Sequence record: NZ_CP118109.1
Length of the DNA stretch: 64,000 nucleotides
Origin: a plasmid
Reading direction: 5' to 3' (one strand)
Below, one piece after another: positions 1,941-46,023 of this stretch (its first letter is position 1; each line of letters opens with the position of its first letter). The position numbers and the translations under genes are program-made. Under the pieces are notes generated by a model. The model was not told the origin of the DNA. It saw only the letters and a program-made list of their open reading frames with translations, and ran no database searches.

Positions 1941-2393
1941 TTATACTTTTGTCTCAATATGAACTGCCTCAAGGTCGGTATAAATGGATCCATCAAAGAC
2001 GAGCGTGCCAACAATGATTCCTCTTATGAAATGCTGCTTAGTAAGTATTTCAATGGAGGTTCTATCTTGCCACTCTATAAATTTTCTCATATCTTTTAAA
2101 TTGCTAAATGTAAAAGGTATGCTTGCGATTACTCTTGAAGTTGTGAATGCACTCGAAGGACGCAAGTGCATATCAAACGAGCCAGTCGTATTTGAATATA
2201 TGTGATCATTAAGTTTCTCGATCTTTACAGAAGTAGCATAGCCTTTAATAATTTCATCCGTCATTGGATTATAAATAAGCGCCATGTTTTCTTCATGCCA
2301 ATGCTTTTCACTTTCAGGAACATTCAGCTTCATAGAGAATAGCCATTTATATACATCCAGATCTCTTTTTAGATAAGTGCTCATCAATTCCAT
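1941..2393 (-). CDS. hypothetical protein, MELM-N-terminus family member (MELMSTY)
   Basis: 150-aa ORF. AAGGAA RBS 8 nt upstream. Start codon overlaps stop of upstream gene (TAATG). Confidence 0.55.
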   Translation of the reverse strand: MELMSTYLKRDLDVYKWLFSMKLNVPESEKHWHEENMALIYNPMTDEIIKGYATSVKIEKLNDHIYSNTTGSFDMHLRPSSAFTTSRVIASIPFTFSNLKDMRKFIEWQDRTSIEILTKQHFIRGIIVGTLVFDGSIYTDLEAVHIETKV

Positions 2394-2737
2394 TATTCGT
2401 ATTCCTTACAATTGAATGTGAGCAGCCAGCTACCGTCCATTTGCCGGCCAAGCCTATGATAGACAATTTGATATGCCCGCTCTCCCCCGCCTATGAATTT
2501 CATCATCAAAACACGCATGCGATCTTCCCATCCATCCATAGATGGATCGTCTTTAAGTTCTTCCATGACCCACTCTTCAATAATGACTTTGCCCTGTGTT
2601 ACATCTGAATAGTCCGGATGGGGCCTAAACTCCTCTAATCGTGACACCGTCAGAGATACGGTTTGCTTCCTTTTATTTACTATCCAGAGCATAAAGCTCT
2701 CGACAGTTTGATCTAAATAGACTTCCATGAGATTCAC
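2393..2737 (-). CDS. hypothetical protein, MELM-family N-terminus (GTG start; M-N-L-M-E-V-Y)
   Basis: 114-aa ORF. GGAGGAG RBS 6 nt upstream of GTG at 2737. Confidence 0.5.
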   Translation of the reverse strand: MNLMEVYLDQTVESFMLWIVNKRKQTVSLTVSRLEEFRPHPDYSDVTQGKVIIEEWVMEELKDDPSMDGWEDRMRVLMMKFIGGGERAYQIVYHRLGRQMDGSWLLTFNCKEYE

Positions 2738-2755
2738 AGATGACTCCTCCTCTTA

Positions 2756-5700
2756 TTAGCTAAATTCCACCTGGAACTGATTCATTATTTCCTCTTCCGA
2801 TTGTTCGGCATGATCCATGTACGTAATTTTATCTACGATGAGATCTGAACCGCTTCGTTTGCCGACGACTTTAATCTTGCGTCCGATAATGAAGTCATCT
2901 GCATTCTTGCTCCATATCTTATTGAAGATGACTAGACTCAATTCATCCTCTGCCGTCTCTATCTTCGCCTTACCTGTTACCTTGCCGCTACTCTTGGCTG
3001 TGAAAGGCTTAGACTCTATAATGTAGCCGGTGAACGTGATATTCTCTCTGCCATCTTCAATGCTATCCCACCGAGAACGAATGCTTACATTTGTGCCGAG
3101 CATTTCACGCTCATAGGCGATAATGTCCTTCTTCGTTGTTTTGGATGGCATATGTTCAAACTCTTCGCCGCGGTATTCGAAATATCTGCGCAATAAGAGA
3201 TTGCGGTTGTCGGATATTGTATCGAAACTTCCGGACTTAATGAGATTGGATGTTTTTGTTTTATTGAGTTTCATTGTTCTATTGGCCAATAAGAAATCAT
3301 CAAATTCTTTGAATGGTCGGCATTCCGTAATGACATCAAGATCTTTGCTGCTGACTCCTGCGATACTTGCAAGGCCATACAAAATCTTACCAAGACCTTC
3401 TTCGCCCTCTTGAGCATTGATTGGTGTCCAGCTGTCGTTAGAGTAGTTGATATCTGGTGGCAGGATGCTGATTCCCATTTCTTCGCATTCTTTCATGTAT
3501 GCAACGTTACGGGGAACACCATCTTTCAGCTTGCCCTCTGAGATTGTCATGAGCGCAGCCATAAACTCTGTTGGATAGTAAGCCTTCAGATAAGCTGTCA
3601 TAACAGAGAGTACTGCGTAGCAAGCGCTATGCGCATAGTTGAAGCAGTAGTCACCGAACTTGATCCAGTCTTCTTTGATTTTAAGAAGTGTTGCCTCGTC
3701 ATATCCAAGGGAAATAGCTCCTGGAATGTTAAGTGGCTCTTTGCCTTTAGCGATTAGCTCAGCATCTTTTTCAGCGCTGCCATAGATCATGTAGTTGATC
3801 CATTCTTCCATTAGTGCGTGATTCTTTTTCGAGATGGCTTTACGCAGGATATCAGATTGACCGGTAGTGAATCCTCCAAGAATCATGGAAGCTTTCATGA
3901 TCTGCTCTTGGTAGACCCAAATACCATAGGTCTTTCCAAGAACCGGCTCTAAGCTATCGAACGGATAAGTAACTCTCTCTTGTCCTTTCTTTCTTCGGAT
4001 ATAAGAGGGAATAAGGTCGAGTGGTCCTGGTCTGCCTAACGCTACGATAACGGAAATATCCTCTACATTTGAAGGCTCCATGTCTTTGATGATTCCGCGG
4101 AATAGATCAGACTCGCACTGGAAGATTCCTGAGAGATTCAGCTTATTATAAATTTCTTCATAAATCTTCGGATCATTAAAGTTAATTGTATTCAGATCAA
4201 GCTCCATAATCCCTGCATTCTGCTTCGTCTTCTTGATCAGGTCGAGGGTAGACAGCTTAAGAATGTCGAATTTAACTAGGAACTTTTCGATCCACTCCAT
4301 ATCGTATTGAGTTGTCGTAAGTCCTTCCTTATCCAGTCGAAGAGGTACGGTGTTCGTAAGCGGCTTAGGTGAAAGAACGATGCCTCCAGCATGCACTCCT
4401 GCACTTCTGACGTGCCCCTCAAGTGCTTTGGCAGCTTGCCACCATTCAGGATATCTATCTGCATACATCCGAGTTTCAGGTGATATCTGATAAGCACCAT
4501 CCACTTCTTTTCCGTTTTTATTAATATACTTGTCTAATGTAATGCCTGGCGTTTCGGGAATAGACTTCGCAAACCGGTCTTGATCCTGCGCACCGTATCC
4601 AAGTGCCTTACCAACTGCACGAATAACCGATCTACCTGCAAGAGTTCCATAGGTGCCAATCTGAGCTACGTTAAGATCACCGTATTTCTGCTTCATGTAT
4701 TCCTGTACAGCTCTAGCGCCTTCATAGGAGAAGTCTACGTCGATATCTGGATAGCCTGCGCGTTCTGGATTCAGGAAGCGCTCAAACATTAGATCCCATT
4801 TAATCGGATCGATCGTTGTAATGCCAATAACGAAAGCAACGAGTGAACCGGCAGCGGATCCCCTTCCAGGTCCTACTTCGAATCCATTTTCCTTCGCCCA
4901 GTTAATATAGTCAGATACAATCAGAAAGTAATCAGCAAATCCAAGTGGATTAATAACACTCAGCTCATATTGAAGCTGTTGACTGTATTGCTCCAGATCA
5001 ATCGGCGTCTTTAATGCGTAGGTGAACAGCCGGTTCCATGCCAGCTTCTCTAGCTGCTCTTCCGCTGTATCATTCTCATCAACAATGTATTTAGGGAACA
5101 AAGGATCTTTGGGCAAGTCTACATCGACCAACTCTGCAATTCTGAGCGTATTTTCAATGGCTTCATCATCGTTAATAATCTCACGAATCTCATCCTCTGA
5201 TTTCATCCAGAACTCATGAGCGTATACCAAGCGATCATTATCATGAATACATTTATTCATACTGGATGCAACTAGAATATCGTGGATGTCACGGTCGTCT
5301 TTATTGGCATAGTGAACATCTGTTGTTACGATTTTCGGCGTGTTTGTTTCCAGAGCCAGCTGGTCAATGATTTCATTAAGCCTGATTTGCTCTGGGATGC
5401 GCGTTGCCTGCTTCTCCAAATAAAATGAGTGAAACGTCTCTTTGCACTCCTGTATGAATGAGCGACACTCTGCCAGATCACCAGCAAGGGCAAAGCGAGC
5501 AAGGTAACTACCAAGACAAGCAGAGGTAGCAATAATGTGCTTGCCAAGACCACGATCACGAATAAAGGCAAGATCGGTACGAGGATTACTATAAAAACCG
5601 CTGATATGAGCATCTGAAATAATTTCATATAAGTCCTCCAATCCTTGTTGGTTAGTGGCCATCAGGACAATATGAAAGTTATCATGCTTGATTAGTTCAT

Positions 5701-6211: not shown

Positions 6212-6233
6212 AGATGACTCGCTCTCCTTGCGA

Positions 6234-6530
6234 TTAATCTTTCGACTGGCCTTCCCCGATCACGTCGAGCGATGAAATAATTGGCCCAAATCTTCCATCT
6301 GCGCGCTTTACAACAGTAGTTGGAGCTACAGGCGATCCAATAACAACCATGCCTCCTACGCCGCTAGTTAGAATGATGGAGCGTGTTTTTCTTCCTTGTG
6401 TCATGTCCACATAGCGCCCATCGTCTTTAGCTTGAGTCATCATGCGACGTATTGGTGAGCTGTCTGGACGACTGATTGAAATGATCTTGCTTTCTTCAAT
6501 GAAATTTCCAAAACCGATATCGATGTACAT
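6234..6530 (-). CDS. RemA/DUF370-family DNA-binding protein homolog
   Basis: YIDIGFGNFI...ISRPDSSPIRRMM..AKDDGRYVDMTQGRKTRSIIL...VIGSPVAPTTVVKR matches the RemA (B. subtilis YlzA) consensus IGfGN...SaPiKR...lIDaTyGRrTR..I..d..vilS.vqPeT..R. Confidence 0.7.
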   Translation of the reverse strand: MYIDIGFGNFIEESKIISISRPDSSPIRRMMTQAKDDGRYVDMTQGRKTRSIILTSGVGGMVVIGSPVAPTTVVKRADGRFGPIISSLDVIGEGQSKD

Positions 6531-6533
6531 AAG

Positions 6534-7397
6534 TTAATCCACCTTTGAGAAAGTTATATTTTTCTCAGCTACTTCGCGCACAAGATCTCCATTTGTGTCG
6601 CCGGTGATTACGTCGGGGATAGGTCTGCCTTCTTTTATAGCAGCTCTGATATTTTCGACATCCTTATAAGCTTCGCTGCCGAAGTTAAACGGATTAGGAT
6701 TACGGATACTACCATCATTCTTGGCACTATCTGAGTGGCAGTAGATATTAAAAGGGCAATCTTTGCACTTATAATTGCTCGGCGTATATCCTTTTTCAAG
6801 CGGAGGGAGCATTCTGTCTTTGGCCAGCTGTATACATTCGTTTGCTTTTTGCTCTAGCTTCTTGCCGTATACAGGGTCGTAATTCATGTGGTATTCCCAA
6901 ACGTCTTGTGTATCCTTCTCTTCAACGAAAATGATTCCTTTGTGGATGCCAGATAAATGCATGTAAAACGTAAGCTGCGCTTTATGTTCAGCCTTTGGTT
7001 TATTGTTTTCTTTCATCCACTTAAAGCTATGACTGAATGCGCTCTTTAGTTCCACCAAGAACTTTTCCCCAAAGGGATTTAGAAAGCTTGGAATACTGAT
7101 AAGCGCATCCGTATGTCCGCTGATATCGTCCCGCTCTAACTTCATTTCTGCCTGAACGAGGACTCCCATATCAGCGAACAATTTCTCGTAACGGTGATGC
7201 ATGCTATGACCATTTTCGAAGATTCGGATGAGCTGCGGATCAGTTTCTGGCTTCGGAACCATAAGCATATCGAATACGATTTTCCGCTTACACATGCCGA
7301 TCGTAGAAGGATGAAGCTTTCTCATCGGCCTTGTTTCATTGGCTAGTTTCTTTTTTTGATGTCGTTCGATATAGGTTTGAAGCAATCCCGCCATCAT
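6534..7397 (-). CDS. Cas4/RecB-like PD-(D/E)XK nuclease with Cys cluster
   Basis: N-terminal Cys (STIGMCKRK). D...E-L-K core (GHTDALI...LVELKS). C-terminal C-x2-C-x5-C (YKCKDCPFNIYC). 287 aa. Strong GGAGGGGG RBS. Confidence 0.6.
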   Translation of the reverse strand: MMAGLLQTYIERHQKKKLANETRPMRKLHPSTIGMCKRKIVFDMLMVPKPETDPQLIRIFENGHSMHHRYEKLFADMGVLVQAEMKLERDDISGHTDALISIPSFLNPFGEKFLVELKSAFSHSFKWMKENNKPKAEHKAQLTFYMHLSGIHKGIIFVEEKDTQDVWEYHMNYDPVYGKKLEQKANECIQLAKDRMLPPLEKGYTPSNYKCKDCPFNIYCHSDSAKNDGSIRNPNPFNFGSEAYKDVENIRAAIKEGRPIPDVITGDTNGDLVREVAEKNITFSKVD

Positions 7398-7412
7398 CCG
7401 ACCCCCTCCATG

Positions 7413-7463
7413 AAATGTAATGCGTTACATTTCAATTATAAACGAGATAATAGAAGGAATCAA
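7413..7463 (-). promoter_or_regulatory. sigma-A-type promoter TTGATT-N17-TATAAT with dyad AAATGTAACGCATTACATTT at +1
   Basis: On the minus strand, TTGATT (+7458-7463), 17-nt spacer, TATAAT (+7435-7440), palindrome 7413-7432, then GGAGGGGG RBS and ATG at 7397. Lies downstream of terminator 7465-7495. Confidence 0.7.
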
Positions 7464-7464
7464 G

Positions 7465-7495
7465 AGAAAAACGGAGATAAACTTAATTATCTCCG
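7465..7495 (-). terminator. rho-independent terminator (minus strand)
   Basis: 8-bp stem CGGAGATA/TATCTCCG with 8-nt loop, followed on the minus strand by UUUUUU (A-run 7466-7471 on +). Confidence 0.6.
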
Positions 7496-7731
7496 CTTAC
7501 TGCCTCTTCATCTTCGGTTGTGAGATCTGAATACATTTCTCGGTTGCATAAGACAATTTGATTAAAGAACTTACTGGGTACAATTAGATTTCCTGCAACA
7601 ACATAGTTATCTCGTTCAGTGATTTCTTTCAGTCTTAGTTCCAATGGAAAATGATTTAAGTTGTTCGAACAATCCAAGGTGGCAACTCCAGCAATCATAG
7701 TGTTCTCGTTAAAGTTCATCATCGTAGACAT
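7483..7731 (-). CDS. hypothetical protein
   Basis: 82-aa ORF; stop lies inside the terminator hairpin 7472-7495. Confidence 0.45.
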   Translation of the reverse strand: MSTMMNFNENTMIAGVATLDCSNNLNHFPLELRLKEITERDNYVVAGNLIVPSKFFNQIVLCNREMYSDLTTEDEEAVSGDN

Positions 7732-8498
7732 TTTATTTCTCCCTTTACACGTTTTTCGCGGAAGCTATCAGCGATTCGTTTTCGAATGCGATAAACAGAT
7801 CGATGATGGAGCCCGTTAATTCGAGCAATCTCTCTATCTGTCATGCCTTCATCGTAAGCCTTAAGAAGAATAAATCTTTCGCTATAACTCAGTTCTTTGA
7901 ACAAATCGCTACCTACTATGCCGTTCAACCACAGAATATTGTCCAGTTCAGTATACTCATCAACCTCCATATTTAGAGGCTCATAATAATACTTGTTTTC
8001 TATGATGCTGTCTATGGCTCGATCGTCATTTATGTAGCGGTCATCTTTGTAAGAGTACTGTTCTTCTTCCATACTCTCGAACATCTTATTATCCACAAAC
8101 CGCTTTACTCGGTATCTAAACACACTGTATACATATCGGCTAAAGCCGAATCCCATTTCTTTATAGGAGTGCGCACATTCTAACAATACGATTAGCAGCT
8201 CATGCTCAATCTCCGCTATATCATAGACGGAGAAAGTGTCTCGAATGTTCTTGATGACATCATAAACCTTCTCGATCGTTTCGCTTTTGCATCCTCCAGC
8301 TTTACAAAGATCATTGATGATTTCAGCTTCCCGAATGAAGCAGGATAAAAATCGCTTAGAATCATAGCTTTTAAAATCCATTTCTCCGTAGACGAGAAGC
8401 CTGCTGTATCTTCGTATCATCTTGTGATATCTTCTCATCAGAGGATTGGCATCGCCTTCTTCAAGATAACTATGAAGCGGATCGTGTTGCTTCTTCAT
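7719..8498 (-). CDS. sigma-70-family sigma factor-like protein (region 4 HTH at C-terminus)
   Basis: C-terminal SERFILLKAYDEGMTDREIARINGLHHRSVYRIRKRI resembles sigma region 4.2. Upstream F..Y....R block resembles region 2. 259 aa. Confidence 0.5.
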   Translation of the reverse strand: MKKQHDPLHSYLEEGDANPLMRRYHKMIRRYSRLLVYGEMDFKSYDSKRFLSCFIREAEIINDLCKAGGCKSETIEKVYDVIKNIRDTFSVYDIAEIEHELLIVLLECAHSYKEMGFGFSRYVYSVFRYRVKRFVDNKMFESMEEEQYSYKDDRYINDDRAIDSIIENKYYYEPLNMEVDEYTELDNILWLNGIVGSDLFKELSYSERFILLKAYDEGMTDREIARINGLHHRSVYRIRKRIADSFREKRVKGEIKCLR

Positions 8499-9054
8499 AT
8501 TCCTTCCTCACGTCCTCCAGATCAATCTCGTCAGCTTTCCGAAAGATCCGAAGCTCGAAGTAAGGCTGAATGCCGGAATCTTTTTCTAAATAGTGAAAAT
8601 CTTTTACTCTTGGCAGGGCATAGTGGTCGTTCTTGTAAATGACGCCTTCTAAAGCATCCATCATTAGCTTGAAGACATTATGAGTATCACGTTTCTTCTC
8701 ATCTGGAAAGTAGGCTGTAAGTTCAAGCACGACTTTATCTTTTGTCGTCATTTTCCAATCATTTTTTAAGCTCCAGGCGTAAGCCAAAGCGTGCCATTTT
8801 TCAAATAGATCTTCTGCCGGCTTCGTCAGCTTCTTGCCGCCTCTGCCCGTATTTTCATAGATATGGTTAACGGAAGGGTAGAAACCAGGGTCTCCAAGTG
8901 CCTCTACATGGGTGTAAACTTTCTTCACTGGCTTTAGCTTGCCCTTGCCGTTTAACTCCTTTTTAATCTTCCATCTTCCAGTGACGGGGTCCTTTTCTTT
9001 CTCATAAGACTTATAGCTCCCGAACATCATCATCGGCAGGATAAGTGTTTCCAT
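8470..9054 (-). CDS. rusA: RusA-family Holliday junction resolvase (with N-terminal extension)
   Basis: YPSVNHIY.ENTGRGG...KVVLELTAYFPDEKKRDTHNVFKLMMDALEGVIYKNDHYAL...YFELRI parallels E. coli RusA PPSNNRYY..NRGR...[40 protein letters not shown]...RLELTI. Confidence 0.7.
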   Translation of the reverse strand: METLILPMMMFGSYKSYEKEKDPVTGRWKIKKELNGKGKLKPVKKVYTHVEALGDPGFYPSVNHIYENTGRGGKKLTKPAEDLFEKWHALAYAWSLKNDWKMTTKDKVVLELTAYFPDEKKRDTHNVFKLMMDALEGVIYKNDHYALPRVKDFHYLEKDSGIQPYFELRIFRKADEIDLEDVRKEYEEATRSAS

Positions 9055-9067
9055 GATCGGTATCTCC

Positions 9068-9322
9068 TTAGTAGTAAATAATGCGAATATCGAAGTCGTC
9101 GTGGATCAATACTAATGGCTTGATAATCTGAAGCACCTTTATATGACCCTCGGACTCCCTCATTGATAAAGGAAGTAACACTTTGTCGTATTGCTTACCC
9201 CTCATTGCTTCTTTCGTGAGACTATCGAATCCGATCACATCTATATGACTTAGCTTGGTTACTGTTTTAACACAGGAGGTTTCGCCCTCTATGATCATTA
9301 AGATGTCTGTATTTTTAGCCAT
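9068..9322 (-). CDS. hypothetical protein
   Basis: 84-aa ORF in operon context. Confidence 0.45.
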   Translation of the reverse strand: MAKNTDILMIIEGETSCVKTVTKLSHIDVIGFDSLTKEAMRGKQYDKVLLPLSMRESEGHIKVLQIIKPLVLIHDDFDIRIIYY

Positions 9323-9786
9323 TATTTATTCACCTTTATTGCCATCGTGGGAATGTGCATACATGTGATAATTAATGCTTCACCAATGAAGCGTCCTTCA
9401 CTATCGTATCGCTTGTTGTAATTAAGATCACGGCCAGTAAATTTTTCTGGATCAAGTCCGTATTCTTGCTTTACATACTTCAAGACTGTCGCCTCTAAGA
9501 TAGCGTCACGAGTAATATTCACCTGATCTTTCATTCGGAGCTCGTCCCATTCAGCTTCTTCCTCGTCAGCGATCTTATTCATAACAGCGCAGAACTCATC
9601 GAAGGTTAGTCTGCAGGTGCGGCCAAGTTCATCAAACTGCTCCGGCTCCAAGATAAAGTCAATGTTCGTGACTCCTTGTTCGGACTTTTTTGACATCTTT
9701 ACAAGTTTCTCATCTTCCTTGCTCTCCGTCTGCTGGCTTTCCACTGCCCAATTCCTTTTCGGACCGATCCTCATTCTCTTTGACAT
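9322..9786 (-). CDS. hypothetical acidic protein
   Basis: 154-aa ORF. AAAGGAG RBS. About 100-nt leader downstream of the promoter/palindrome at 9908-9936. Confidence 0.5.
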   Translation of the reverse strand: MSKRMRIGPKRNWAVESQQTESKEDEKLVKMSKKSEQGVTNIDFILEPEQFDELGRTCRLTFDEFCAVMNKIADEEEAEWDELRMKDQVNITRDAILEATVLKYVKQEYGLDPEKFTGRDLNYNKRYDSEGRFIGEALIITCMHIPTMAIKVNK

Positions 9787-9907
9787 CTCCTTTCTTAGGT
9801 GCTAAATCTTCCGTGAATACACCACGACCTAGGTCTTCAATAATACGATATCCTCCCATGTTTTCACCACCATTCTCCATTATAGTCTCTATATCTCTTG
9901 TTTACTT

Positions 9908-9936
9908 AAAATGTAATGCGTTACGTTTTACATTAT
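9908..9936 (-). promoter_or_regulatory. extended -10 (TGTTATAAT) promoter with dyad AAAACGTAACGCATTACATTTT
   Basis: On the minus strand, TGTTATAAT directly followed by the palindrome (9908-9929). Lies immediately downstream of terminator 9953-9977 and upstream of gene 9322..9786. Confidence 0.6.
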
Positions 9937-9952
9937 AACACAATTTCTGCAT

Positions 9953-9977
9953 AAAAAAAGAGGGGATTTCACCCCTC
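9953..9977 (-). terminator. rho-independent terminator after protease gene
   Basis: GAGGGG-attTca-CCCCTC hairpin followed by a 7-U run on the minus strand. Confidence 0.7.
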
Positions 9978-9980
9978 CTA

Positions 9981-10874
9981 TTAGCCGATTAATTTTTCGA
10001 GATCGATAAGCCCATCGCCAGTATAAATGTCTCTGCCTGGAATACTTAAATCCTCACAGGATTCTTCTAGCTTTGCATGAACTTCTTCTAGCGTGGGCTC
10101 TACTCCTTGCCCTCTGCAGAAGCTAATATACAGTGCAATACATCCAGAGATAATAGGCGCTGCCATGCTGGTGCCGGATAGCTTCGCATAACCTCCATCT
10201 TTATACGTAGAGAAGATGTCTACACCAGGAGCCATGACTTCATTCTTGATGCCATAGTTACTGAATGGAGCTCTCTCTTTCCCTGGAGACATTGCAGATA
10301 CAGCGATTACTTCGTCATACATGGCTGGCCAACATACACCTGTATTTTCATTGCCTGTAGCAGCAACAACTATAATACCTGCGGCAGCCGCTTCTTTAAT
10401 GGCTTTGTGTAATTCCAGAGGCGGCTCGCTTGCACAGCCGAGACTCATGTTGATGATATCTACATTTTGCTCAATTGCCCACCGCAAGCCATTGATAATG
10501 GATTGAAAGTTGCCTCCTCCATTGTCTCCAAGGACTTTTGCGACATACAGCTCTGCATCAGGTGCGATCCCCACAACTCCTATTCCGTTGTCTGCCGCTC
10601 CAATGATGCCAGCAACATGTGTTCCATGCCCTTGTTTGTCTTCAGGTCCATACGGAGAGCGAGTGAAGTCTGCATAGACTTTCAAGTTCGGCTGCAGGTC
10701 TGGATGATCACGATCCACGCCCGTATCAAGGACAGCCACTTTGACTCCTTTACCGGTTGTGGTATTCCATACATCGGGTGCATTTACGGCTTCAATACCC
10801 CAATCAATAATGTCATCGCGCATCTCTGCGCCATGGGTTTGGACGATTTTATAGTCCGCCTGGGTGTCACTCAT
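9981..10874 (-). CDS. subtilisin-like serine protease (peptidase S8)
   Basis: Catalytic triad motifs VAVLDTGVD (Asp), HGTHVAGII (His), GTSMAAPIISG (Ser). 297 aa. AGGAGG RBS. Rho-independent terminator immediately downstream. Confidence 0.9.
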   Translation of the reverse strand: MSDTQADYKIVQTHGAEMRDDIIDWGIEAVNAPDVWNTTTGKGVKVAVLDTGVDRDHPDLQPNLKVYADFTRSPYGPEDKQGHGTHVAGIIGAADNGIGVVGIAPDAELYVAKVLGDNGGGNFQSIINGLRWAIEQNVDIINMSLGCASEPPLELHKAIKEAAAAGIIVVAATGNENTGVCWPAMYDEVIAVSAMSPGKERAPFSNYGIKNEVMAPGVDIFSTYKDGGYAKLSGTSMAAPIISGCIALYISFCRGQGVEPTLEEVHAKLEESCEDLSIPGRDIYTGDGLIDLEKLIG

Positions 10875-10914
10875 AGTTTCCTCCTATGTTTTCACCCTGT
10901 ATCCTATCTTCTAT

Positions 10915-10935
10915 AATTGTAACACGTTACATTTT
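10915..10935 (-). promoter_or_regulatory. dyad ATTGTAACACGTTACATTTT upstream of protease gene
   Basis: Palindrome overlaps the stop of 10934..11302 and lies 40-60 nt upstream of the protease start at 10874. No clear -35/-10 assigned. Confidence 0.4.
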
Positions 10936-11302
10936 ACTTTTCAGTAGTTTGTGAAAAATCTATAAAGAGGTCTTGTTCTTTGATTTGATCCATATAAGCC
11001 TGGAGTTCTTCATCGGTAACAGCTATATATACTCCACATGATCGGTCGGTGATACTGCATTTTCTTCTTTCTTCAACTCTTACTCTTCCGGACATTGTCA
11101 TTTCTGTTAGTCTCGGATGAACCAGATTGCGATCCCATCCTTTTAAGAGGTCGGCCTCGTACATTTTAGCTGCAATTTCGTTAGCTGTTAAGCCATCTTC
11201 ATATTGAAGAAGAAAGCTATGTATGATGTTCTGACGAGTTGCTACATCCTGTTTAACCAGATCGAAAGACTCTTTGCGGGTGCTGCTTGTTATTGTTGAC
11301 AT
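10934..11302 (-). CDS. putative winged-helix DNA-binding protein
   Basis: LTANEIAAKMY....G.....V.PRLTEMTMSGRV pattern resembles a wHTH. 122 aa. Weak. Confidence 0.35.
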   Translation of the reverse strand: MSTITSSTRKESFDLVKQDVATRQNIIHSFLLQYEDGLTANEIAAKMYEADLLKGWDRNLVHPRLTEMTMSGRVRVEERRKCSITDRSCGVYIAVTDEELQAYMDQIKEQDLFIDFSQTTEK

Positions 11303-11317
11303 GTTAATTCGCTCCTT

Positions 11318-11812
11318 TTATGAGTTTAGAAATGCATTTATGACTGACGATAATATCAATAAAGATCCTGTAACTATTGCCATTCGCCATAATCGGTCTT
11401 CTTTCTTTTTTGTGGCTTCCCTTGTCTTTGCAGCTTTTTCTAAGTCAGCAAGTGCCTTGGCTGCTAATTCTTCTCTTTCTTGCGCCCGTCGCATGGTATC
11501 TTCGAGCCTTCTATCTTCGAGTATTCTCTCAGCTTCTCGATTATAATCTACAATGTCGGAACCTCCGGAACGACGCTGCTCTTCTTCCAGTAGATCTTGC
11601 CAGTTGCGTATTTCTTCCGGTATATACGTAACACTTCCAGGATCCTGAAGAATAGTCGCAGGCCGTATGGATATTCGCTCCATCTCTTCTCTCGCATCAA
11701 CCGGCACTGGTATATTCCAACCTATAATCTGCCCAGTGCCTTTGTGTCCTCTTAAATATATATCTTTAATTTCATCCCTTACCTTTTGCTGGTAGTTTGA
11801 CAATAGCTCCAT
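11318..11812 (-). CDS. hypothetical protein with C-terminal transmembrane helix; MELM-family N-terminus (MELLSNYQQK)
   Basis: ORF 11318..11839. GGGGGAG RBS 8 nt upstream of the internal ATG at 11812, so the start was trimmed. C-terminal IVTGSLLILSSVINAFL is hydrophobic. Confidence 0.5.
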   Translation of the reverse strand: MELLSNYQQKVRDEIKDIYLRGHKGTGQIIGWNIPVPVDAREEMERISIRPATILQDPGSVTYIPEEIRNWQDLLEEEQRRSGGSDIVDYNREAERILEDRRLEDTMRRAQEREELAAKALADLEKAAKTREATKKKEDRLWRMAIVTGSLLILSSVINAFLNS

Positions 11813-11816: not shown

Positions 11817-12083
11817 TTACTCCCCCAAATTCTGAACAATAAACGAAATGATAACGAGTATGCCGATCCCTACCATTGTCCATCCAAATCTCCGAAACGC
11901 CTTATCCACTTCTGGCCACCCGCATGTATTTACTTTCTTCGTTCCTCTGCCTCGCGGACGTACTCCTTCATGCACAATAGTACCCTTTGGCCGATCCATG
12001 CCTAGCGTTCTTGGTGTAGACGCAGGAACCTTTATCACATTCCTATGACGATCTTGATATCTTTTCATCATCTCCATGGGCAT
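11817..12083 (-). CDS. small membrane protein; N-terminus M(P)MEMMKRY resembles the MELM family
   Basis: 88 aa. C-terminal hydrophobic stretch WTMVGIGILVIISFIV. Confidence 0.45.
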   Translation of the reverse strand: MPMEMMKRYQDRHRNVIKVPASTPRTLGMDRPKGTIVHEGVRPRGRGTKKVNTCGWPEVDKAFRRFGWTMVGIGILVIISFIVQNLGE

Positions 12084-12452
12084 TTACCATTGAACCGCAT
12101 ATCTTGGAGTAACGCCTTTTTTGTTATAGTGATTAAGTGCATTACTGCTCATGACTCCTGTTAAATCCCCTTTCGTCTTGGAAGATACATAACGAACAGA
12201 GTGAGTGATTTCTGGCGATGAAGTATCTATTATTACTTGGATATGATCGATAAGCGCTGCTTTTTTCAGTTCACCATGAAGTTCTTCTAACATATTTGTA
12301 ATCCTATATACTCTTTTTTTACCATGCTCATTAATTTCCACAAATTGATTCAAAATGTTATCGACTATAGTCTTTGCCAAGTTTAATTTTACTTCGTTGC
12401 TAGTTAATTCAGCTTCAAAGCCATTTATATAATATTTTTTCATCAATTCCAT
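12084..12452 (-). CDS. hypothetical protein, tandem paralog A (MELMKKYY N-terminus)
   Basis: 122 aa. Shares N-terminal and C-terminal blocks (KKGDLTGVM...Y...G..P...W) with the adjacent 12459..12821 gene. AGGTGG RBS. Confidence 0.55.
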   Translation of the reverse strand: MELMKKYYINGFEAELTSNEVKLNLAKTIVDNILNQFVEINEHGKKRVYRITNMLEELHGELKKAALIDHIQVIIDTSSPEITHSVRYVSSKTKGDLTGVMSSNALNHYNKKGVTPRYAVQW

Positions 12453-12458: not shown

Positions 12459-12821
12459 CTACCACCTAATCCCATGAATTGGAATTATCCCTTCTTCTTT
12501 GTAACGCTCAATATCATGCTCATTCATCACGCCTGTTAAATCTCCCGCTTTTTTGGAACGCATATATCGTAATTGACAGTTAGTACAAGTCTTATTTATT
12601 ACGACGCGGACATGATAGGCAAGATCAGCAACAAGCAGCTTATCATATATTTCTTTTTCCATAGCCCTTGGGTCACTTACAGAGGGAGTTCTGTAGCGAT
12701 CCATTACGAGATGACTTTTCAATACATCTGAAACGATGTTTCCGGCTAACCTCATTATCTGGTCGTTTGTTTTTTCTTCTGCCTCGCTAATATTTAGCCT
12801 ATATCTTCTCATTAATTCCAT
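12459..12821 (-). CDS. hypothetical protein, tandem paralog B (MELMRRY N-terminus)
   Basis: The ORF-track start at 12839 is an extension. GGAGTGG RBS 5 nt upstream of the ATG at 12821, which overlaps the stop of the upstream nuclease gene (TAATG). Confidence 0.55.
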   Translation of the reverse strand: MELMRRYRLNISEAEEKTNDQIMRLAGNIVSDVLKSHLVMDRYRTPSVSDPRAMEKEIYDKLLVADLAYHVRVVINKTCTNCQLRYMRSKKAGDLTGVMNEHDIERYKEEGIIPIHGIRW

Positions 12822-13564: not shown

Positions 13565-13866
13565 AGTATCAACCTTTCTACCTCTACTACATTACCTTCC
13601 CAATCCCTGACGTCCCAAATTATATTTGCGCTATTGTTCTGTCCTAATACGACCATGACGTCAAAGTAAAGCTTATCATCCATAAGACCATACAGTCTTT
13701 CTCTTGCTCTCTTTGATATCTCTTTACCCATGATCTGCAAGTTTTCGGGAGTCAACATAAGATATTGCATGTCTATAAACGTTTCATTGGCGATTTCAAA
13801 AACCATATTTCTGATCCCCATATAGTCATAGACGTGACTCTTTAAATACGGGCGGAATAGCTCCAC
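13561..13866 (-). CDS. hypothetical protein (GTG start; MELFRPY N-terminus)
   Basis: GAGGGGG RBS 8 nt upstream of GTG at 13866. 101 aa. Overlaps the 3' end of the upstream gene by about 40 nt. Confidence 0.5.
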   Translation of the reverse strand: MELFRPYLKSHVYDYMGIRNMVFEIANETFIDMQYLMLTPENLQIMGKEISKRARERLYGLMDDKLYFDVMVVLGQNNSANIIWDVRDWEGNVVEVERLIL

Positions 13867-14155
13867 GCAGGTTTCCCCCTCTTAATTCTTCAAGTGTTCT
13901 TTGCACTTCGCCCGTTAATCTTGCTCTATTTAGTTCATTGTTCGGCATGCCTACATAAGGAAGCTCAATAGCGTCACTCACTCTTCTGGTCAGACTTCTT
14001 TCAAGTTCAGCTCGAATCTCCTCTTCAAACATACTTTTTCCATATTCATAACTTCTTTTCATTCTTCCTTCGATGACACCGCTCGATCTAATTCTCTCCA
14101 ATATTTCCGAAGCAGTTGACTGCCTGAAACGTTTCCTGTATTCCTGCATTAACTC
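13826..14155 (-). CDS. hypothetical protein (MELMQEY N-terminus)
   Basis: GGAGGG RBS 6 nt upstream of the ATG at 14155. The ORF-track extension to 14269 is rejected because an independent small gene occupies 14175..14363. Confidence 0.5.
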   Translation of the reverse strand, partial: ELMQEYRKRFRQSTASEILERIRSSGVIEGRMKRSYEYGKSMFEEEIRAELERSLTRRVSDAIELPYVGMPNNELNRARLTGEVQRTLEELRGGNLRGAIPPVFKESRL

Positions 14156-14174
14156 CATAAGTAGCCCTCCTACG

Positions 14175-14389: not shown

Positions 14390-14839
14390 CTAAGCTCCCA
14401 CAAGGTTCTTTCTTGCTGTGTCATATTGACGGGCAATCGCTGCTGCGAGTTTATCATAAGGATCTTCCCATCCTTCTGGCTTCATTACTTTGCCGTCTTC
14501 TTTGTAATGAGGCTTGCCGTCTGGCCACAATTTGCTCATGTTTGCATGCTGAACGACATCCATGAGTTCTTGAGGTTTTACACCCAGCTCTACCAGTGTA
14601 CCGATAGCAAAGTAGATCACGTCAATCATAGCGTCAGCTTGATCGACAACAGTTTTAGCATCCAAAAATTCTTGTACTTCTTCATTAACCCAATTCATGC
14701 GCTTTGCCGCGCGTTCCGCATTCATGAGTGTTGGCAGCTCACTTACCGGATGATTAAATGCTTCCTGGAAAGCTTTCACCTGATCGTAAGCGTAGTCTAG
14801 CCCCTTGCCTTCATATTGATATGGTTGCATTAATTCCAT
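14390..14839 (-). CDS. MazG-like all-alpha nucleoside triphosphate pyrophosphohydrolase (MELMQPY N-terminus)
   Basis: E-E-x-x-E ... D acidic motif (NEEVQEFLDA...DQADAMIDVIYFA) typical of the MazG/HisE-like fold. 149 aa. AAGAGG RBS. Confidence 0.55.
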   Translation of the reverse strand: MELMQPYQYEGKGLDYAYDQVKAFQEAFNHPVSELPTLMNAERAAKRMNWVNEEVQEFLDAKTVVDQADAMIDVIYFAIGTLVELGVKPQELMDVVQHANMSKLWPDGKPHYKEDGKVMKPEGWEDPYDKLAAAIARQYDTARKNLVGA

Positions 14840-16133: not shown

Positions 16134-18445
16134 TCTTCAATTGTCAATGCGCGGCTGCGGAGATAGTAGCTCGTCTTGATTCCGTTCTCCCAAACAGCCA
16201 TATGCAAATCCAAAAGATCACTTGCTTTGATGTCTGGAGTTACATAAAGGTTGAAGCTTTGAGCCTGGTCAATATGTCTCGATCGAGCACCGGCCATCTT
16301 AATGCTAGCGTGTTGATCAATCAAGAACGCAGTCTTGTAATACCAAAGTGTATCGTTATTCAGATCCGGAGCAGGATTGGCCACTTTATACGTTGTCTTT
16401 TCTTCATAAGAAACAAGTTCGTAAATCGGATCAATGGTTGCTGTAGAGCCGGCAATAATGGATGTGGTACCATTTGGCGCTATTGCTATCAGGTTCGCAT
16501 TGCGGATACCGTATTTACGGATCTCACCGGCAAGCTCCGCCCACTCAGTGCTGTTGTATCCTCGATCGGTAAAGTAGTTCCCGTTTTGCCATTCGCTGCC
16601 TTCAAACTTCGGATAGGCTCCTTTTTCTTTGGCCAAATCCATACTTGTCTTAATCGCAAGGAAGTTGATTTTCTCATAGAGCTTGTCGTTATAATCAACA
16701 GCAGCATCGGATTCCCATCGAATCTTCAGCAGGGCAAGTAAGTGATGAAGACCAAATGTTCCTAGACCAACGGCACGATACTGGTTGTTTGTGTGCTGTG
16801 CCTGAAGCACTTCGATGTTGTTGATGTCGATAACGTTATCTAGCATCCGAATTTGGATTGGAACAAGGCGTTCTAGCACATTGTCCGGAACCGCTCTGGA
16901 TAGATTAATTGAGTTCAGGTTACATACAACAAAGTCACCTGGAATTTTAGTAATGATGATCCGTGTTTCTCCATCCTTAGTTACAAGCTCTTCGGACTCA
17001 ACTACTGTTGGAGATTGGTTTTGCATGATCTCTGTACAGAGGTTTGAAGAATATATCATGCCGTGAGCTTTATTCGGATTCGTCCGGTTTACTGTATCAC
17101 GGTAGAACATGAACGGCGTGCCTGTCTCAAGCTGGGACTTCATAATGCGCTTCATAACATCAATAGCTTGAACAGTAATACGTGGCAGCAGTGGGTTTGC
17201 TACAGCTTCAGCATATTTCTCACGGAACGCTCCGCTTCCAAGCTTCTCATCATAGAAGTCTTCTAAGCCCAATTTGCGCCCCTTCTCATCTGTCCAACCC
17301 ATAATACTCTTCACTTCGTGAGGGCAGAACAGGTGCCATTCTTCGCGCTCACGAACAGCTTCCATGAATAGATCCGGCAGACATACGGCGTGGAAGATGT
17401 CATGCGCTCTCATACGCTCGTCACCGTTGTTCAATTTAAGATCCAAGAAGGACAGAATATCTTTATGGAAAACATCCAGATAGACAGCTACAGCGCCTTT
17501 ACGAGTGCCAAGCTGGTCAACGCTGACTGCCGTATTGTTCAGCTGGCGGATCCAAGGGATAACGCCGGAACTTGTATTCTTGTGCCCGCGGATATCGGAG
17601 CCTCTGGAACGTACTTTTCCAAGGTATACACCGATACCGCCACCCATTTTGCTGAGACGTGCTACATCGGTATTGGAATCAAAGATACCTTCAAGAGAGT
17701 CGTCAACCGTATCAATGAAGCAGCTGGACAGCTGTCCGCCAGAAGCTTTACCTGCATTAGATAAAGTCGGTGTAGCCACTGTCATGTATAGGTTGCTCAT
17801 AGCCCAGTAAGATTCTTTAACTAGCTCGATTCGCTTCTCTGCAGGCTCCTGGTGCATCAAGAACATAGAAATAATCATATAGCGCTCTTGCGGCAGCTCC
17901 ATTACCTTACCGTCATAATCGCTAGTCAAGTAGCGTTCATTGAGTGTCATGAGGCCAATGTAGTCGAACAGCAGATCTCTTTCTGGAGCGATAGTAGCTT
18001 CAAGCTCTTCGATTTCTTCTTTGGTGTAAGCTTCTAATAGTTCTTTTCTGAATAGCTTCTTCTCGACCAATGTCGTGATCAAGCTGTAGAAGGATCCATA
18101 AGGCTTATCTGTATATGATTTATAATTACGATTGAAAGCTGCCTTTTTATATAAGGATGTTAAAAAGGAACGAGCAGCCGCAAACTTCCAATTCGGTTCT
18201 TCTTTCGAAATCAATTCCAATGCAGACATAGTAAATGCATTTGTAATCTCATCGGCGGTTACTTCTTTGTATCTAAGCTTAGATAATACGCCACGAATTA
18301 AGCGTTGAATATTCAGGGGTTCTCCCTGCGAATCTTTTAAGTCTGCCATGATGCGTTCTGCGAATGCTTGGATTCGGTTAACGTCAAATGCCAGTTCTCT
18401 ATTATTGGGCTTTGTAACCTTTAGCGGTGTTGCGCTCAATTTCAT
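16112..18445 (-). CDS. nrdE: ribonucleotide reductase class Ib alpha subunit (NrdE)
   Basis: 777 aa. Active-site NLCTEI motif (SSNLCTEIMQ). C-terminal Cys pair. Typical RNR large-subunit length. Confidence 0.9.
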   Translation of the reverse strand: MKLSATPLKVTKPNNRELAFDVNRIQAFAERIMADLKDSQGEPLNIQRLIRGVLSKLRYKEVTADEITNAFTMSALELISKEEPNWKFAAARSFLTSLYKKAAFNRNYKSYTDKPYGSFYSLITTLVEKKLFRKELLEAYTKEEIEELEATIAPERDLLFDYIGLMTLNERYLTSDYDGKVMELPQERYMIISMFLMHQEPAEKRIELVKESYWAMSNLYMTVATPTLSNAGKASGGQLSSCFIDTVDDSLEGIFDSNTDVARLSKMGGGIGVYLGKVRSRGSDIRGHKNTSSGVIPWIRQLNNTAVSVDQLGTRKGAVAVYLDVFHKDILSFLDLKLNNGDERMRAHDIFHAVCLPDLFMEAVREREEWHLFCPHEVKSIMGWTDEKGRKLGLEDFYDEKLGSGAFREKYAEAVANPLLPRITVQAIDVMKRIMKSQLETGTPFMFYRDTVNRTNPNKAHGMIYSSNLCTEIMQNQSPTVVESEELVTKDGETRIIITKIPGDFVVCNLNSINLSRAVPDNVLERLVPIQIRMLDNVIDINNIEVLQAQHTNNQYRAVGLGTFGLHHLLALLKIRWESDAAVDYNDKLYEKINFLAIKTSMDLAKEKGAYPKFEGSEWQNGNYFTDRGYNSTEWAELAGEIRKYGIRNANLIAIAPNGTTSIIAGSTATIDPIYELVSYEEKTTYKVANPAPDLNNDTLWYYKTAFLIDQHASIKMAGARSRHIDQAQSFNLYVTPDIKASDLLDLHMAVWENGIKTSYYLRSRALTIEECENCAS

Positions 18446-18880: not shown

Positions 18881-19258
18881 CTACTTTTTCACAAGCTGTT
18901 CAAGGTATTCTCCTTCAGCATCACAAACTTCTCTGATTTGTTCCATTGCTACGGTTGATCCAATCGACCGCAGCTTCTTAAACACAAATAGATCACGTTC
19001 CTCTTCATTATAGACAGGATCGCCTTCTCCATCCTCGGGAGCATTTCTGACAAGTCCTTCAGTCAACTGAATCATTTCAATCTTAAGTACTTTTCCATCC
19101 ACGGAATGGTTGAATACCTCCAAGGCGCGAGTCAGGTACCCACCATAAAAATGATTGCTGAAAGTTTCTTCAGTAAGGGCGCCGATCTCATCGTACATTT
19201 CATCCATGTTCTTGATTTTCTTTAGATTACCCAAGTATTCTTCTAACACTGATTTCAT
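18881..19258 (-). CDS. hypothetical acidic protein
   Basis: 125-aa ORF. Confidence 0.5.
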   Translation of the reverse strand: MKSVLEEYLGNLKKIKNMDEMYDEIGALTEETFSNHFYGGYLTRALEVFNHSVDGKVLKIEMIQLTEGLVRNAPEDGEGDPVYNEEERDLFVFKKLRSIGSTVAMEQIREVCDAEGEYLEQLVKK

Positions 19259-21812: not shown

Positions 21813-21813
21813 G

Positions 21814-22195: not shown

Positions 22196-22789
22196 TCATT
22201 TTGCGTTAACCTCCTTTAAAGAGAAGACGCCTAAATGGTCAGCATCTTTCAGGATGAATTTGCCTTGGGATTCGTTATTAACGAAGTACTCAAGCTTCTG
22301 CCCGATGAATGGGATCATCGTTGATGTATCAGCATCCGACTCTTCTTCGCTGCGTAAAATAACTTTGCCACCAGGCAAGATAATCTTGTGCACCCCGCTG
22401 TGGCCATCCTCGCAATGCACATCAAATAATTTGAAGTCAGTTCCATCCAAATCAACACGCTGCCTGCGGATCATCATGTTCAGAATCTTCTCGTTATGCT
22501 TTTCTGTATTGCAAATGGAGCCCTCTTCAAAGAGGATACAGCTGCGGCATTCGGAGTCAGAAGAATTGAAGTTTCTGCATTTAAAGCACAGCGGGCATTC
22601 GTGGAAACGAATGCACTCGCCGTACACTTGATGTCTTGGCATATTCAGCGGATCTTCTTTGGATAGTACCTTCCCTTTCGGTGCCTTAAAGCTTTCCTGC
22701 TTCATCATGCCAGCTTTGTATTGTTCCAGCATCTCTCTGCGATCGCTCTCTGTAAGGCCGCCTTGATAGGCTTTCTCCATAAAATCCAT
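22196..22789 (-). CDS. Cys-rich metal-binding protein (unknown function)
   Basis: Dense Cys cluster (CIRFHECPLCFKCRNFNSSDSECRSCILFEEGSIC). 197 aa. Confidence 0.5.
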   Translation of the reverse strand: MDFMEKAYQGGLTESDRREMLEQYKAGMMKQESFKAPKGKVLSKEDPLNMPRHQVYGECIRFHECPLCFKCRNFNSSDSECRSCILFEEGSICNTEKHNEKILNMMIRRQRVDLDGTDFKLFDVHCEDGHSGVHKIILPGGKVILRSEEESDADTSTMIPFIGQKLEYFVNNESQGKFILKDADHLGVFSLKEVNAK

Positions 22790-45234: not shown

Positions 45235-45236
45235 CT

Positions 45237-45572
45237 TTATTGTCCGCTCCTTGGTTTAGATGGTCGCCATCCAGGTGGTGGCGGTTTAATAGTGCGACTA
45301 TCCAAATAATCTATATAGCAATTTTCACAGAACGGACCTGACACGAATCCTCTACTACTTTCGTGGTTCCAAGACAATGTATTTGCCCAATGTGATTTTT
45401 TGCAAGTTTTGCACTTCCAGAAGCCAAGCATCCAAAAGAGTAGTTTATAAATAATGACACCAGCCAAAACTACCACTCCTATATTCCAAGAGAACAATAG
45501 CCAAAACAGTGGGACCCTAGTCAAAGCGTTTAACATGCCTCTCCTCCTTTCGTATGTAAAGACAGCCTGCAA
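45237..45572 (-). CDS. small membrane protein with C-terminal zinc-ribbon (CKTCKK...CENCY)
   Basis: 111 aa. Two hydrophobic helices followed by Cys pairs. Embedded in structural operon. Confidence 0.45.
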   Translation of the reverse strand: MQAVFTYERRRGMLNALTRVPLFWLLFSWNIGVVVLAGVIIYKLLFWMLGFWKCKTCKKSHWANTLSWNHESSRGFVSGPFCENCYIDYLDSRTIKPPPPGWRPSKPRSGQ

Positions 45573-45579
45573 GCTGCCT

Positions 45580-46023
45580 TCAATAAATCTCTATAATGAT
45601 GTGCGCGTATTTTCCAGCATACGTTTTCAGGATCGATTCAATATCGTGGTTGCCGATAGTAAAGTTTTCAACTGAATACCCTTCGATCGTATATTCCGAA
45701 TACCCATACCATTCCGTATAGATATCAAGCTCACCGATCGACATCATAATCTGTTTTTCTTCTGCTTCTTCGAGTGAGACTTCTTTGTCACTCAGATGAA
45801 ATCGAAGGAAAACGTTGGGTAGAGAAACGGACATATCCGTATGGTAATCATTTGTTTGGTGTTTGGATTCGTCGTTTCCGGATATCTGAGAAGCAATCGC
45901 TCGGCCGATACTTTCATAAGTGCCATCAAATTTCATCCCGTCTTCGTGATTGTTTAAATATCCTCGCAGGTGTATTCGCTTCTGAATTGTATCTTTCTGG
46001 TATCGGCTCATCAACTCGGTCAT
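45580..46023 (-). CDS. hypothetical protein with MELM-family N-terminus (MTELMSRYQ)
   Basis: 147 aa. AGGGGA RBS. Confidence 0.5.
   Translation of the reverse strand: MTELMSRYQKDTIQKRIHLRGYLNNHEDGMKFDGTYESIGRAIASQISGNDESKHQTNDYHTDMSVSLPNVFLRFHLSDKEVSLEEAEEKQIMMSIGELDIYTEWYGYSEYTIEGYSVENFTIGNHDIESILKTYAGKYAHIIIEIY

Follow-up and report, generated by a model that had tools for sequence, protein, structure and literature searches.

What could cause a set of small proteins with little else in common to begin with the same eight residues, and what might read those residues? The question is raised by a 64,000-nucleotide stretch of the plasmid sequence record NZ_CP118109.1 (the window; positions are counted from its first letter), in which a sequence-only reading had listed ten genes whose products start with M-E-L-[MLF]-x-x-Y or a close variant. 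We propose that this octapeptide is a portable N-terminal short linear motif, or tag, that is read in trans, and we put the probability of this proposal at roughly one half; the leading, less certain candidate for its reader is a phage-encoded subtilisin-like (S8) protease, for which the tag would be a handle or pro-peptide. Chance as the source of the motif is excluded, and the observation is real and larger than first reported. Eight genes start M-E-[LM]-[MLIFV]-x-x-Y, against 0.006 expected from the amino-acid frequencies of the 61 window genes (P about 2e-23), so that the motif is indeed commoner at N-termini than expected. When all six frames were scanned for E[LM][MLF]xxY, 13 matches fell in coding-strand frames and one on the opposite strand, and nine of the 13 stood at a start codon or at most two residues from it. 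The degenerate DNA pattern ATGGARYTNNTNNNNNNNTAY matched six times, against 0.11 expected from dinucleotide-preserving shuffles, none of 100 of which reached six.

The consensus of the tag is fMet/Met1-Glu2-Leu3-[Ile/Val/Met/Leu]4-x-x-Tyr7-[Leu/Ile/Gln]8. It was drawn from 52 tags (the instances found in the window and in the related loci described below, minus look-alikes on sigma-like and nuclease genes), in which the tag begins at residue 1 in 48, with Met there. Position 2 is Glu in 49 and Asp in three, position 3 Leu in 49 and Met in three, and position 4 Ile (18), Met (12), Val (11), Leu (10) or Phe (one), hence one of the first four in 51 of 52; Tyr7 is present in all 52, position 8 is Leu (19), Gln (8) or Ile (7) in most, and conservation ends there. 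Position 6 is Glu in nine and Pro in two, no conserved acidic residue follows Tyr7, and none of more than 70 tags has Phe in place of Tyr7. Codon 3 is any of the six Leu codons (TTA 12, TTG 6, CTT 4, CTC 12, CTA 7, CTG 12) and never TTY, Glu is encoded by GAA (29) or GAG (23) and Tyr by TAT (37) or TAC (18), and upstream of the tagged starts only the GG of the ribosome-binding site is conserved. This free wobble, together with the codon variety and the absence of upstream conservation beyond the ribosome-binding site, argues that selection acts on the amino acids, as the sequence-only reading had argued from fewer genes, and a conserved DNA or RNA element is rejected on the same grounds. Which residue stands at position 4 depends on the genome (M in the window and contig L003, V in L001, L002 and the Paenibacillus rhizovicinus element, I in L007, L in L006), which fits co-evolution with a reader. 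The sequence-only reading knew of no description of such a tag, and none was found here: Pfam, PHROGs and NCBIfam gave no curated model for it, and our literature searches on shared N-terminal motifs of phage proteins and on phage 0305phi8-36 returned nothing relevant.

All window genes, including the ten tagged ones (Table 1), lie on the minus strand. Translation of 36 nucleotides from each listed start gave the reported peptide in all ten cases, two of which are imperfect, with Asn for Glu2 in the gene that starts at 2737 and one extra residue in that starting at 46023. A ribosome-binding site 5–10 nucleotides upstream, claimed for every start, was found for most; the gene starting at 12083 has no clear Shine–Dalgarno sequence (an alternative ATG at 12077 would give MEMMKRYQ directly), that at 46023 has its ribosome-binding site 13 nucleotides upstream, and the start placed at 14155 was a 3-nucleotide slip for 14158. 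Orthologues of the imperfectly tagged 2393..2737 product bear the full tag (MELLQQYT in L003, MELMDAYL in L005, MELIEAYL in L007, MELVQQYL in L008), and the L003 orthologue (3232–3600) of 13826..14158 starts MELMQIYQ. Among 5.8e9 proteins the product of 1941..2393 has a sole match, TCA2_4620 of Paenibacillus sp. TCA20, at 100% identity. The window belongs to an element of this strain. With the tag trimmed, only the products of 12084..12452 and 12459..12821 cluster within the window, and the description of the carriers as otherwise unrelated therefore holds. For seven of the ten, nothing rose above curated or significance thresholds in Pfam, PHROGs or NCBIfam, the exceptions being 14390..14839 (PF01503), 45580..46023 (phrog_20281, E = 1.8e-19, with virion structural proteins as neighbours) and 11318..11812 (a sub-threshold type IV secretion system match). 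The label 'early' that the carriers were given comes from gene position only.

Table 1. Tagged genes of the window and associated features
Feature	Position	Strand	Remarks
Tagged ORFan (open reading frame without relatives), MELMSTYL, 150 amino acids (aa)	1941..2393	-	ATG; AAGGA 9 nucleotides (nt) upstream
Tag-like start M-NLMEVYL, 114 aa	2393..2737	-	GTG; AGGAGG 8 nt upstream
Terminator-like hairpin	9958..9979	-	8-bp stem, 5 GC pairs, then T-run; directly after S8 stop
Intracellular subtilisin (S8), no signal peptide or I9 prodomain	9981..10874	-	Candidate tag reader
Tagged, MELLSNYQ, 164 aa, C-terminal transmembrane anchor	11318..11812	-	Hydrophobic 19-mer, residues 144-162, Kyte–Doolittle score 2.0
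Tagged, MPMEMMKRYQ, 86-88 aa, C-terminal transmembrane anchor	11817..12083	-	Weak ribosome-binding site; TAAATG stop-start adjacency
Tagged ORFan, MELMKKYY, 122 aa	12084..12452	-	Paralogue of 12459..12821
Tagged ORFan, MELMRRYR, 120 aa	12459..12821	-	Paralogue of 12084..12452
Tagged ORFan, MELFRPYL, 101 aa	13561..13866	-	GTG start; L003 orthologue 3576-3881 starts MELLREYL
Tagged ORFan, MELMQEYR, 110 aa	13826..14158	-	AGGAGG 7 nt upstream
MazG-like nucleotide pyrophosphohydrolase, tag MELMQPYQ, short linker, domain	14390..14839	-	PF01503
MTELMSRYQ (tag plus one extra residue), 147 aa	45580..46023	-	Only window carrier inside virion-gene block
Small GNAT in tagged arrays	P. rhizovicinus 109156..109554; L022 6001..6375		Weak generic match

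The tag is kept in elements related to the window. These comprise eight IMG/VR contigs (L001–L008), a 229-kb P. rhizovicinus 'plasmid', a 260-kb Bacillus thuringiensis plasmid, a replicon of ~204 kb from Bacillus halotolerans (CP114067), a second element of ~204 kb of Bacillus licheniformis type (a B. licheniformis plasmid record has its 150-aa neighbour protein as well) and a 198-kb Alicyclobacillus shizuokensis contig, which was all that a profile search recovered; a search of genome contigs with one protein gave nothing. They are read as jumbo phage-plasmids of ~200 kb from Paenibacillus, Bacillus and Alicyclobacillus, because capsid, terminase and tail genes occur in them together with ParM. 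Megablast of the window found no close isolated phage; the best isolated-phage match to its DNA polymerase III alpha subunit (polIII alpha) is at 39% (Moorella phage MTATph1), and for its virion genes the resemblance is to jumbo Bacillus phages of the 0305phi8-36 group, at ~27–33%. Among the relatives polIII alpha is 55–78% identical to that of the window and synteny is kept, in the order ribonucleotide reductase, small genes, PD-(D/E)XK nuclease, small genes, S8 protease, 150-aa protein of unknown function, RusA, sigma-like factor, Cas4-like nuclease, RemA-like protein, polIII alpha, small genes and lysin. The RemA/DUF370-like gene (6234..6530, minus strand; PF04025, E = 9e-22) is flanked by the genes for the Cas4-like nuclease and polIII alpha; every tag-bearing element has it, and the syntenic block of MTATph1 lacks it. 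PolIII alpha itself is interrupted in L003 (9995..14634), L006 and L008, and an ORF with a helix-turn-helix (HTH) motif lying between the two pieces in L003 (11551–12387) suggests an intron or homing-endonuclease insertion.

Each relative has between two and 22 genes starting M-E-L-[IVML]-x-x-Y-[LIQ], and the small tagged ORFs begin directly after good ribosome-binding sites, so that the expectation of the motif in related phages, set by the sequence-only reading, is borne out. The tag is also found on the B. thuringiensis plasmid pd, on both elements of ~204 kb and in a further locus, L022. Carriers make up about one gene in ten of these elements and consist of dozens of unrelated orphans and two enzymes. 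After filtering, 56 tag instances from the window and eight loci fall, with the tag trimmed, into 37 BLAST families, an upper bound in that some positional orthologues downstream of polIII may form one family beyond the reach of BLAST. The complete P. rhizovicinus element (NZ_CP048288) has about 20 tagged genes, of which nine form a tandem, translationally coupled array (106951–110129), three stand singly (94044, 153243 and 158565) and seven surround S8 and polIII; its ~115 kb of structural modules contain no tagged gene. Alignment among the nine array products is confined to residues 1–8, save that two of them are clearly similar (E = 1e-8) and a second pair marginally so (E = 0.005). These array members, alike only over the tag, and the 37 trimmed families largely reject hidden paralogy of the carriers. 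Scanning of 45 non-redundant tagged proteins (the MazG family left out) recognized a dUTPase, phrog_20281 and a few weak matches. The outgroup phages MTATph1, Tsamsa and vB_BceM_WH1 were also scanned, and neither the tag nor any other shared N-terminus was found in them.

The 'linear' P. rhizovicinus record repeats ~17 kb at its ends (6800..9253 equals 218570..221023, and the same protein accessions occur twice), from which the true unit is ~212 kb, circular or terminally redundant; the element also encodes ParM, AgrB/AgrD, DnaN and a GGDEF protein. Three window genes on the minus strand have degenerate look-alikes of the tag, namely MMAGLLQTYI on the Cas4-like nuclease (6534..7397; the L005 orthologue starts MELLEAMI), MKSVLEEYL at 18881..19258 and MDFMEKAYQ at 22196..22789. 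The sigma-like factor (7719..8498, minus strand; HTH_23, E = 4e-8) has DPLHSYL in its N-terminus, and orthologues in L001 (7622), L002 (7648), L005 (7684) and L007 (7686) start MS[DE]ELIxxYQ. This likeness is possibly coincidental, reflecting an ordinary first sigma helix, or the sigma factor may itself be a substrate, as in pro-sigma processing.

The tag is an addition to the proteins that bear it, as is shown on the MazG-like enzyme. The product of 14390..14839 matches PF01503 over residues 21–100 (E = 1.8e-16, 60.8 bits against a cutoff of 21.3), and in its AlphaFold2 model residues 1–10 are coil, with a predicted local distance difference test score (pLDDT) of 56, ahead of an all-helical core scoring 91–99; by this match and this core, which suits the four-helix-bundle fold of the family, it is assigned to the MazG/phosphoribosyl-ATP pyrophosphohydrolase (PRA-PH) group. 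Comparison of 120 MazG-like homologues showed that more than 100 distant ones begin right at the G-L-[ND]...V-K-x-F core, and that the tag extension (MELMQPY, MELMTQY, MELLEKY, MSELIQAY, MSKELVQAY and others) is confined to those of the ~200-kb elements, with a linker of 3–9 residues between Tyr7 and the GLD that opens the domain. Three chromosomal homologues, at 64–74% identity, all lack the tag; their neighbourhoods are conserved, and two lie in an infB-rbfA-truB-rpsO-pnp...dpaA context, between pnp and dpaA, and one beside metH. A chromosomal MazG homologue in locus L025 (10001..10429, P0006) starts MEVTQPHAETEEKRGLD, a near-miss to the tag that may be compared with MELTQPYL of the dUTPase and is a hint that genes pass between element and chromosome, the tag decaying or arising on the way. 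In the B. thuringiensis element the dUTPase carries MELTQPYL and an extension of about 20 residues. The idea of a shared label on unrelated proteins is thereby strengthened, since the label is kept across the lineage and is present on the phage MazG and dUTPase and not on chromosomal or distant homologues. In ten of 71 carriers the C-terminus is a transmembrane segment, and on these membrane-anchored carriers the C-terminal position of the anchor means that the tag faces the cytoplasm. Tagged tail-anchored genes lie directly upstream of S8 in most genomes (L001 5105, L004 4812, L005 5074, L007 4929, L008 4835); in the window (11318..11812 and 11817..12083) and in L003 a small unannotated protein is encoded between the tail-anchored gene and S8. 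A Sec, Tat or lipoprotein signal peptide was considered and rejected. Signal peptides have a basic n-region followed by a hydrophobic h-region of 7–15 or more residues; the tag is acidic at position 2, spans eight residues and is followed by polar sequence, and the transmembrane segments are C-terminal.

The best explanation of these observations is that the tag is kept on variable, mostly non-structural accessory proteins of one 0305phi8-36-related lineage of Bacillales phage-plasmids. With one epitope common to about 20 different proteins in each genome, we infer that the reader is more likely enzyme-like and transient in its action (processing, modifying or sorting) than a stable docking partner. 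The sequence-only reading had named the S8 protease among several possibilities, and it remains the best specific candidate and the one obvious candidate enzyme nearby. It finds subtilisin BPN'-type chains in a phmmer search of the Protein Data Bank (E = 9e-57), its catalytic D/H/S triad is intact, and the aligned DTG, HGTH and GTSMA motifs are those of a Peptidase S8. The gene is present at 57–77% identity in the same module of all eight related IMG/VR loci and wherever else this locus was examined in a tag-bearing element. The hairpin directly after its stop codon (Table 1) is the only terminator-like one found on the coding strand of the block, so that the cluster from 14839 to 9981 is probably one transcription unit with S8 included; a promoter scan found sites no commoner than in shuffles. 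In the outgroup vB_BceM_WH1 (L018), which lacks the tag, a gene for a ClpP-like protease (17185..17763) occupies the slot that S8 has in the tag clade and in MTATph1, as if one protease gene had been exchanged for a non-orthologous one while the genomic position stayed the same.

Subtilisins favour a hydrophobic residue at P4 and an aromatic residue at P1 (e.g. in suc-AAPF-pNA). The tag fits such a site, with hydrophobic residue 4 at P4 and Tyr7 at P1 of a segment predicted to be coil, and three tags read ΦΦxPY, where Φ is a hydrophobic residue. At the S4 wall of the protease (BPN' 104) the nine aligned clade members all have Phe, and the tag-less outgroups have Leu or Met. A short N-terminal peptide of related design, [LVI]-[IFLV]-P-[YFH], is held in the active site of intracellular subtilisin proteases (ISPs) (PMC6220982). 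Like this LIPY/F pro-peptide, which lies in the subtilisin cleft, the tag is N-terminal and has two aliphatic residues followed by an aromatic one; unlike it, the tag is borne by other proteins and not in cis, spans residues 3–7 and not 6–9, and has two free residues in L-Φ-x-x-Y where the ISP motif has Pro before the aromatic residue, Pro at position 6 occurring in few tags. The N-terminal extension of the phage S8 itself (...QADYKIVQ... or variants) contains neither LIPY nor the tag. If S8 reads the tag, residue 4 would enter its hydrophobic S4 pocket and Tyr7 its S1 pocket, with the outcome either cleavage after Tyr7 or occupancy of the active site by the tag. The peptide MELMQPYQYEGK and tagged MazG would then be substrates or ligands of S8, and the accessory proteome might thereby be matured or timed as a set.

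That S8 is the reader, with the tag as its handle or pro-peptide, we regard as possible rather than probable, and several points weigh against it. S8 homologues at 40–50% identity occur in MTATph1 (50%) and Tsamsa (40%), where no tag is found in 40 kb around the gene, so the protease can do without the tag. At the S1 floor (BPN' 166) clade members have C, G or D while Tyr7 is constant, and no S4 residue in the S8 alignment, a sample confounded by phylogeny, tracks tag position 4. An endoprotease site need not start at residue 1, yet 48 of 52 tags do, a hint that the epitope includes the free N-terminus. Trimming seven residues from MazG or dUTPase serves no obvious purpose, and the reader could equally be a host protein or the product of a gene outside the regions examined. 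The first suggestion of S8 thus keeps its universality in the clade, apparent co-transcription and P4/P1 fit, and is weakened by the tag-less phages that have the protease.

One alternative, which we consider unlikely, is that on binding the tag becomes an amphipathic helix of two turns, with L3, Φ4, Y7 and Φ8 on one face, and plugs a hydrophobic groove on a single stable hub that would gather the accessory proteins in one place. The hub might be a component of a replisome or dNTP complex, the phage DnaN, or RNA polymerase or sigma factor. The i, i+1, i+4, i+5 hydrophobic pattern and the rarity of Pro and Gly at the two free positions (5 of 104) suit such a helix, as does the genome-specific residue 4, and it would be in keeping with the dNTP-sanitizing roles of both MazG and dUTPase and with the replisome parts that the elements encode for themselves (dnaN in P. 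rhizovicinus). One hub would, however, have ~20 proteins per genome competing for one site; a Tyr that is never Phe is unusual for purely hydrophobic docking, some tags have Pro6 (MELMQPY, MELFRPY, MELTQPY), and AlphaFold2 predicts coil on MazG. The beta-clamp binding consensus is QL[SD]LF or QLxLxL. The tag does not match it, having a different spacing and Glu in place of Gln, and no hub was found, the fold of the clade-specific neighbour 9322..9774 giving no informative match.

Less likely still is a stability switch, in which the tag would be a degron by which a host AAA+ protease or adaptor (ClpXP, ClpCP, FtsH) turns the carriers over together, e.g. to keep accessory proteins low in the plasmid-prophage state. 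An N-terminal, disordered tag that is cytoplasmic on soluble and membrane-anchored carriers alike could serve this end, and the elements do persist in isolates as plasmid-like replicons. The N-motifs recognized by ClpX are Met-basic-Φ-Φ-Φ and polar-T/Φ-Φ-basic-Φ, and bacterial N-degrons present N-terminal L, F, Y or W; M-E-L-Φ-x-x-Y-Φ, acidic at position 2, resembles none of these. Residue 4 moreover differs within Paenibacillus (M in the window, V in P. rhizovicinus), which fits a phage-encoded reader better than a host one, and there is no reason to destabilize housekeeping-type enzymes.

Lower again we place targeting to the virion, an improbable reading despite its close precedent. The internal proteins of phage T4 share an N-terminal capsid-targeting sequence (CTS). 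Were the tag its equivalent, the proteins would be brought to the prohead, trimmed by a head protease and ejected with the DNA. Like the CTS of IPI–III (MKTYQEFIAE), which is an address and a protease site in one, the tag is a short N-terminal peptide on unrelated, fast-evolving accessory proteins. T4 Alt comes closest, beginning MELITE and continuing, beyond the cleavage point, with LF: it shares M-E-L-I with the tag (four of eight positions) and has hydrophobic residues at positions 7 and 8, and by record X15811 six residues are cleaved from it. One window carrier, 45580..46023, does lie among virion genes, and small orphan proteins would be plausible anti-defence cargo; 45580..46023 has a weak Pfam match to Tad6, a Thoeris inhibitor (E = 0.005), and another tagged protein one to AcrF1 (E = 3.7e-4), both below curated cut-offs. 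The tag, however, differs from the CTS in having no fixed Glu site (L/I-x-E in T4), and thus no conserved Glu-type cleavage site after it, and in its invariant Tyr7. The ten of 71 carriers with C-terminal anchors, the cytoplasmic enzymes MazG and dUTPase, and the ~115 kb of P. rhizovicinus structural modules without a carrier all speak indirectly against packaging, and the earlier suggestion of a capsid-targeting signal or prohead-protease substrate is accordingly disfavoured. The lineages also differ, the tag belonging to an unrelated Gram-positive group of jumbo phage-plasmids. In 0305phi8-36, a type phage to which this group is distantly related, the genes for head protease and scaffold are nested within the head module (PMC2147016), so that S8 is probably not the head protease.

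It is very improbable that the tag marks the site of a modification, whether acetylation of the Met-Glu terminus by a phage GNAT or phosphorylation or nucleotidylation of Tyr7. Strict conservation of Glu2 and of a Tyr never replaced by Phe, and anchoring at residue 1 in 48 of 52, would be expected of such a mark, and small GNAT genes, 58% identical in product, lie inside the tagged arrays of two elements (Table 1). NatB in eukaryotes acetylates MD-, MN- and ME- N-termini, and the variants MD-, MN- and ME- of the tag fall into these classes. The GNAT match, however, is weak (E = 3e-4), generic and known from two elements, MazG tolerates MSELI-type variants, which probably lose their Met, and the idea has no bacterial precedent. 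At the same very low level we place the view that nothing reads the peptide in trans and that it is an optimized translation-start or nascent-chain context, or an inherited 'start cassette' of ribosome-binding site and eight codons: tagged genes often lie in coupled arrays with overlapping stop and start codons and cassette capture would explain the tags of MazG and dUTPase, but abundantly needed virion genes are untagged, initiation efficiency does not account for the unchanging Tyr of codon 7, the DNA is too dissimilar for a recombination site, and descent alone is insufficient where synonymous sites have diverged and five residues are constant among elements with a polIII alpha only 55–78% identical to that of the window.

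We return to a tag that is read in trans, and only tentatively extend it to a proteome-wide addressing code, by which a dedicated reader, S8 or another factor, would mark ~10% of the phage proteins as 'phage accessory'. Proteins so marked might be matured, modified, localized or timed together, and captured genes, including those for the host enzymes MazG and dUTPase, would join the programme by gaining eight codons. The PEXEL motif of Plasmodium (RxLxE/Q/D) is cleaved by plasmepsin V. It follows the logic proposed here, a five-residue N-proximal motif on hundreds of unrelated effectors giving them one dedicated protease and a common fate; unlike the tag it is eukaryotic, acts in the lumen of the endoplasmic reticulum downstream of a signal sequence, and differs in sequence and protease class; the two motifs are not related by descent. 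In encapsulins, cargo-loading peptides direct unrelated enzymes to a single HK97-fold shell. They resemble the tag in being short, disordered and terminal with variable linkers, and differ from it in being usually C-terminal, in their consensus and in having cargo genes beside the shell gene, whereas tag carriers are scattered in non-structural modules. Both comparisons are analogies of logic only.

If the addressing code is real, it would be a bacterial-virus counterpart of PEXEL and plasmepsin V, acting, unlike the T4 CTS, on non-structural proteins. If there is one reader, an eight-residue handle would open up the accessory proteome, mostly unannotated orphans, of a lineage of jumbo phage-plasmids. 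From the tag one can predict which of the orphan ORFs are genuine genes and where they start, and it could offer a ready affinity or processing tag for work in Bacillus and Paenibacillus. The domestication of host genes by phages becomes testable by comparison of tagged phage MazG with its untagged chromosomal homologues. Finally, the tag may give a first function to the subtilisin genes that recur in large Bacillus phages.

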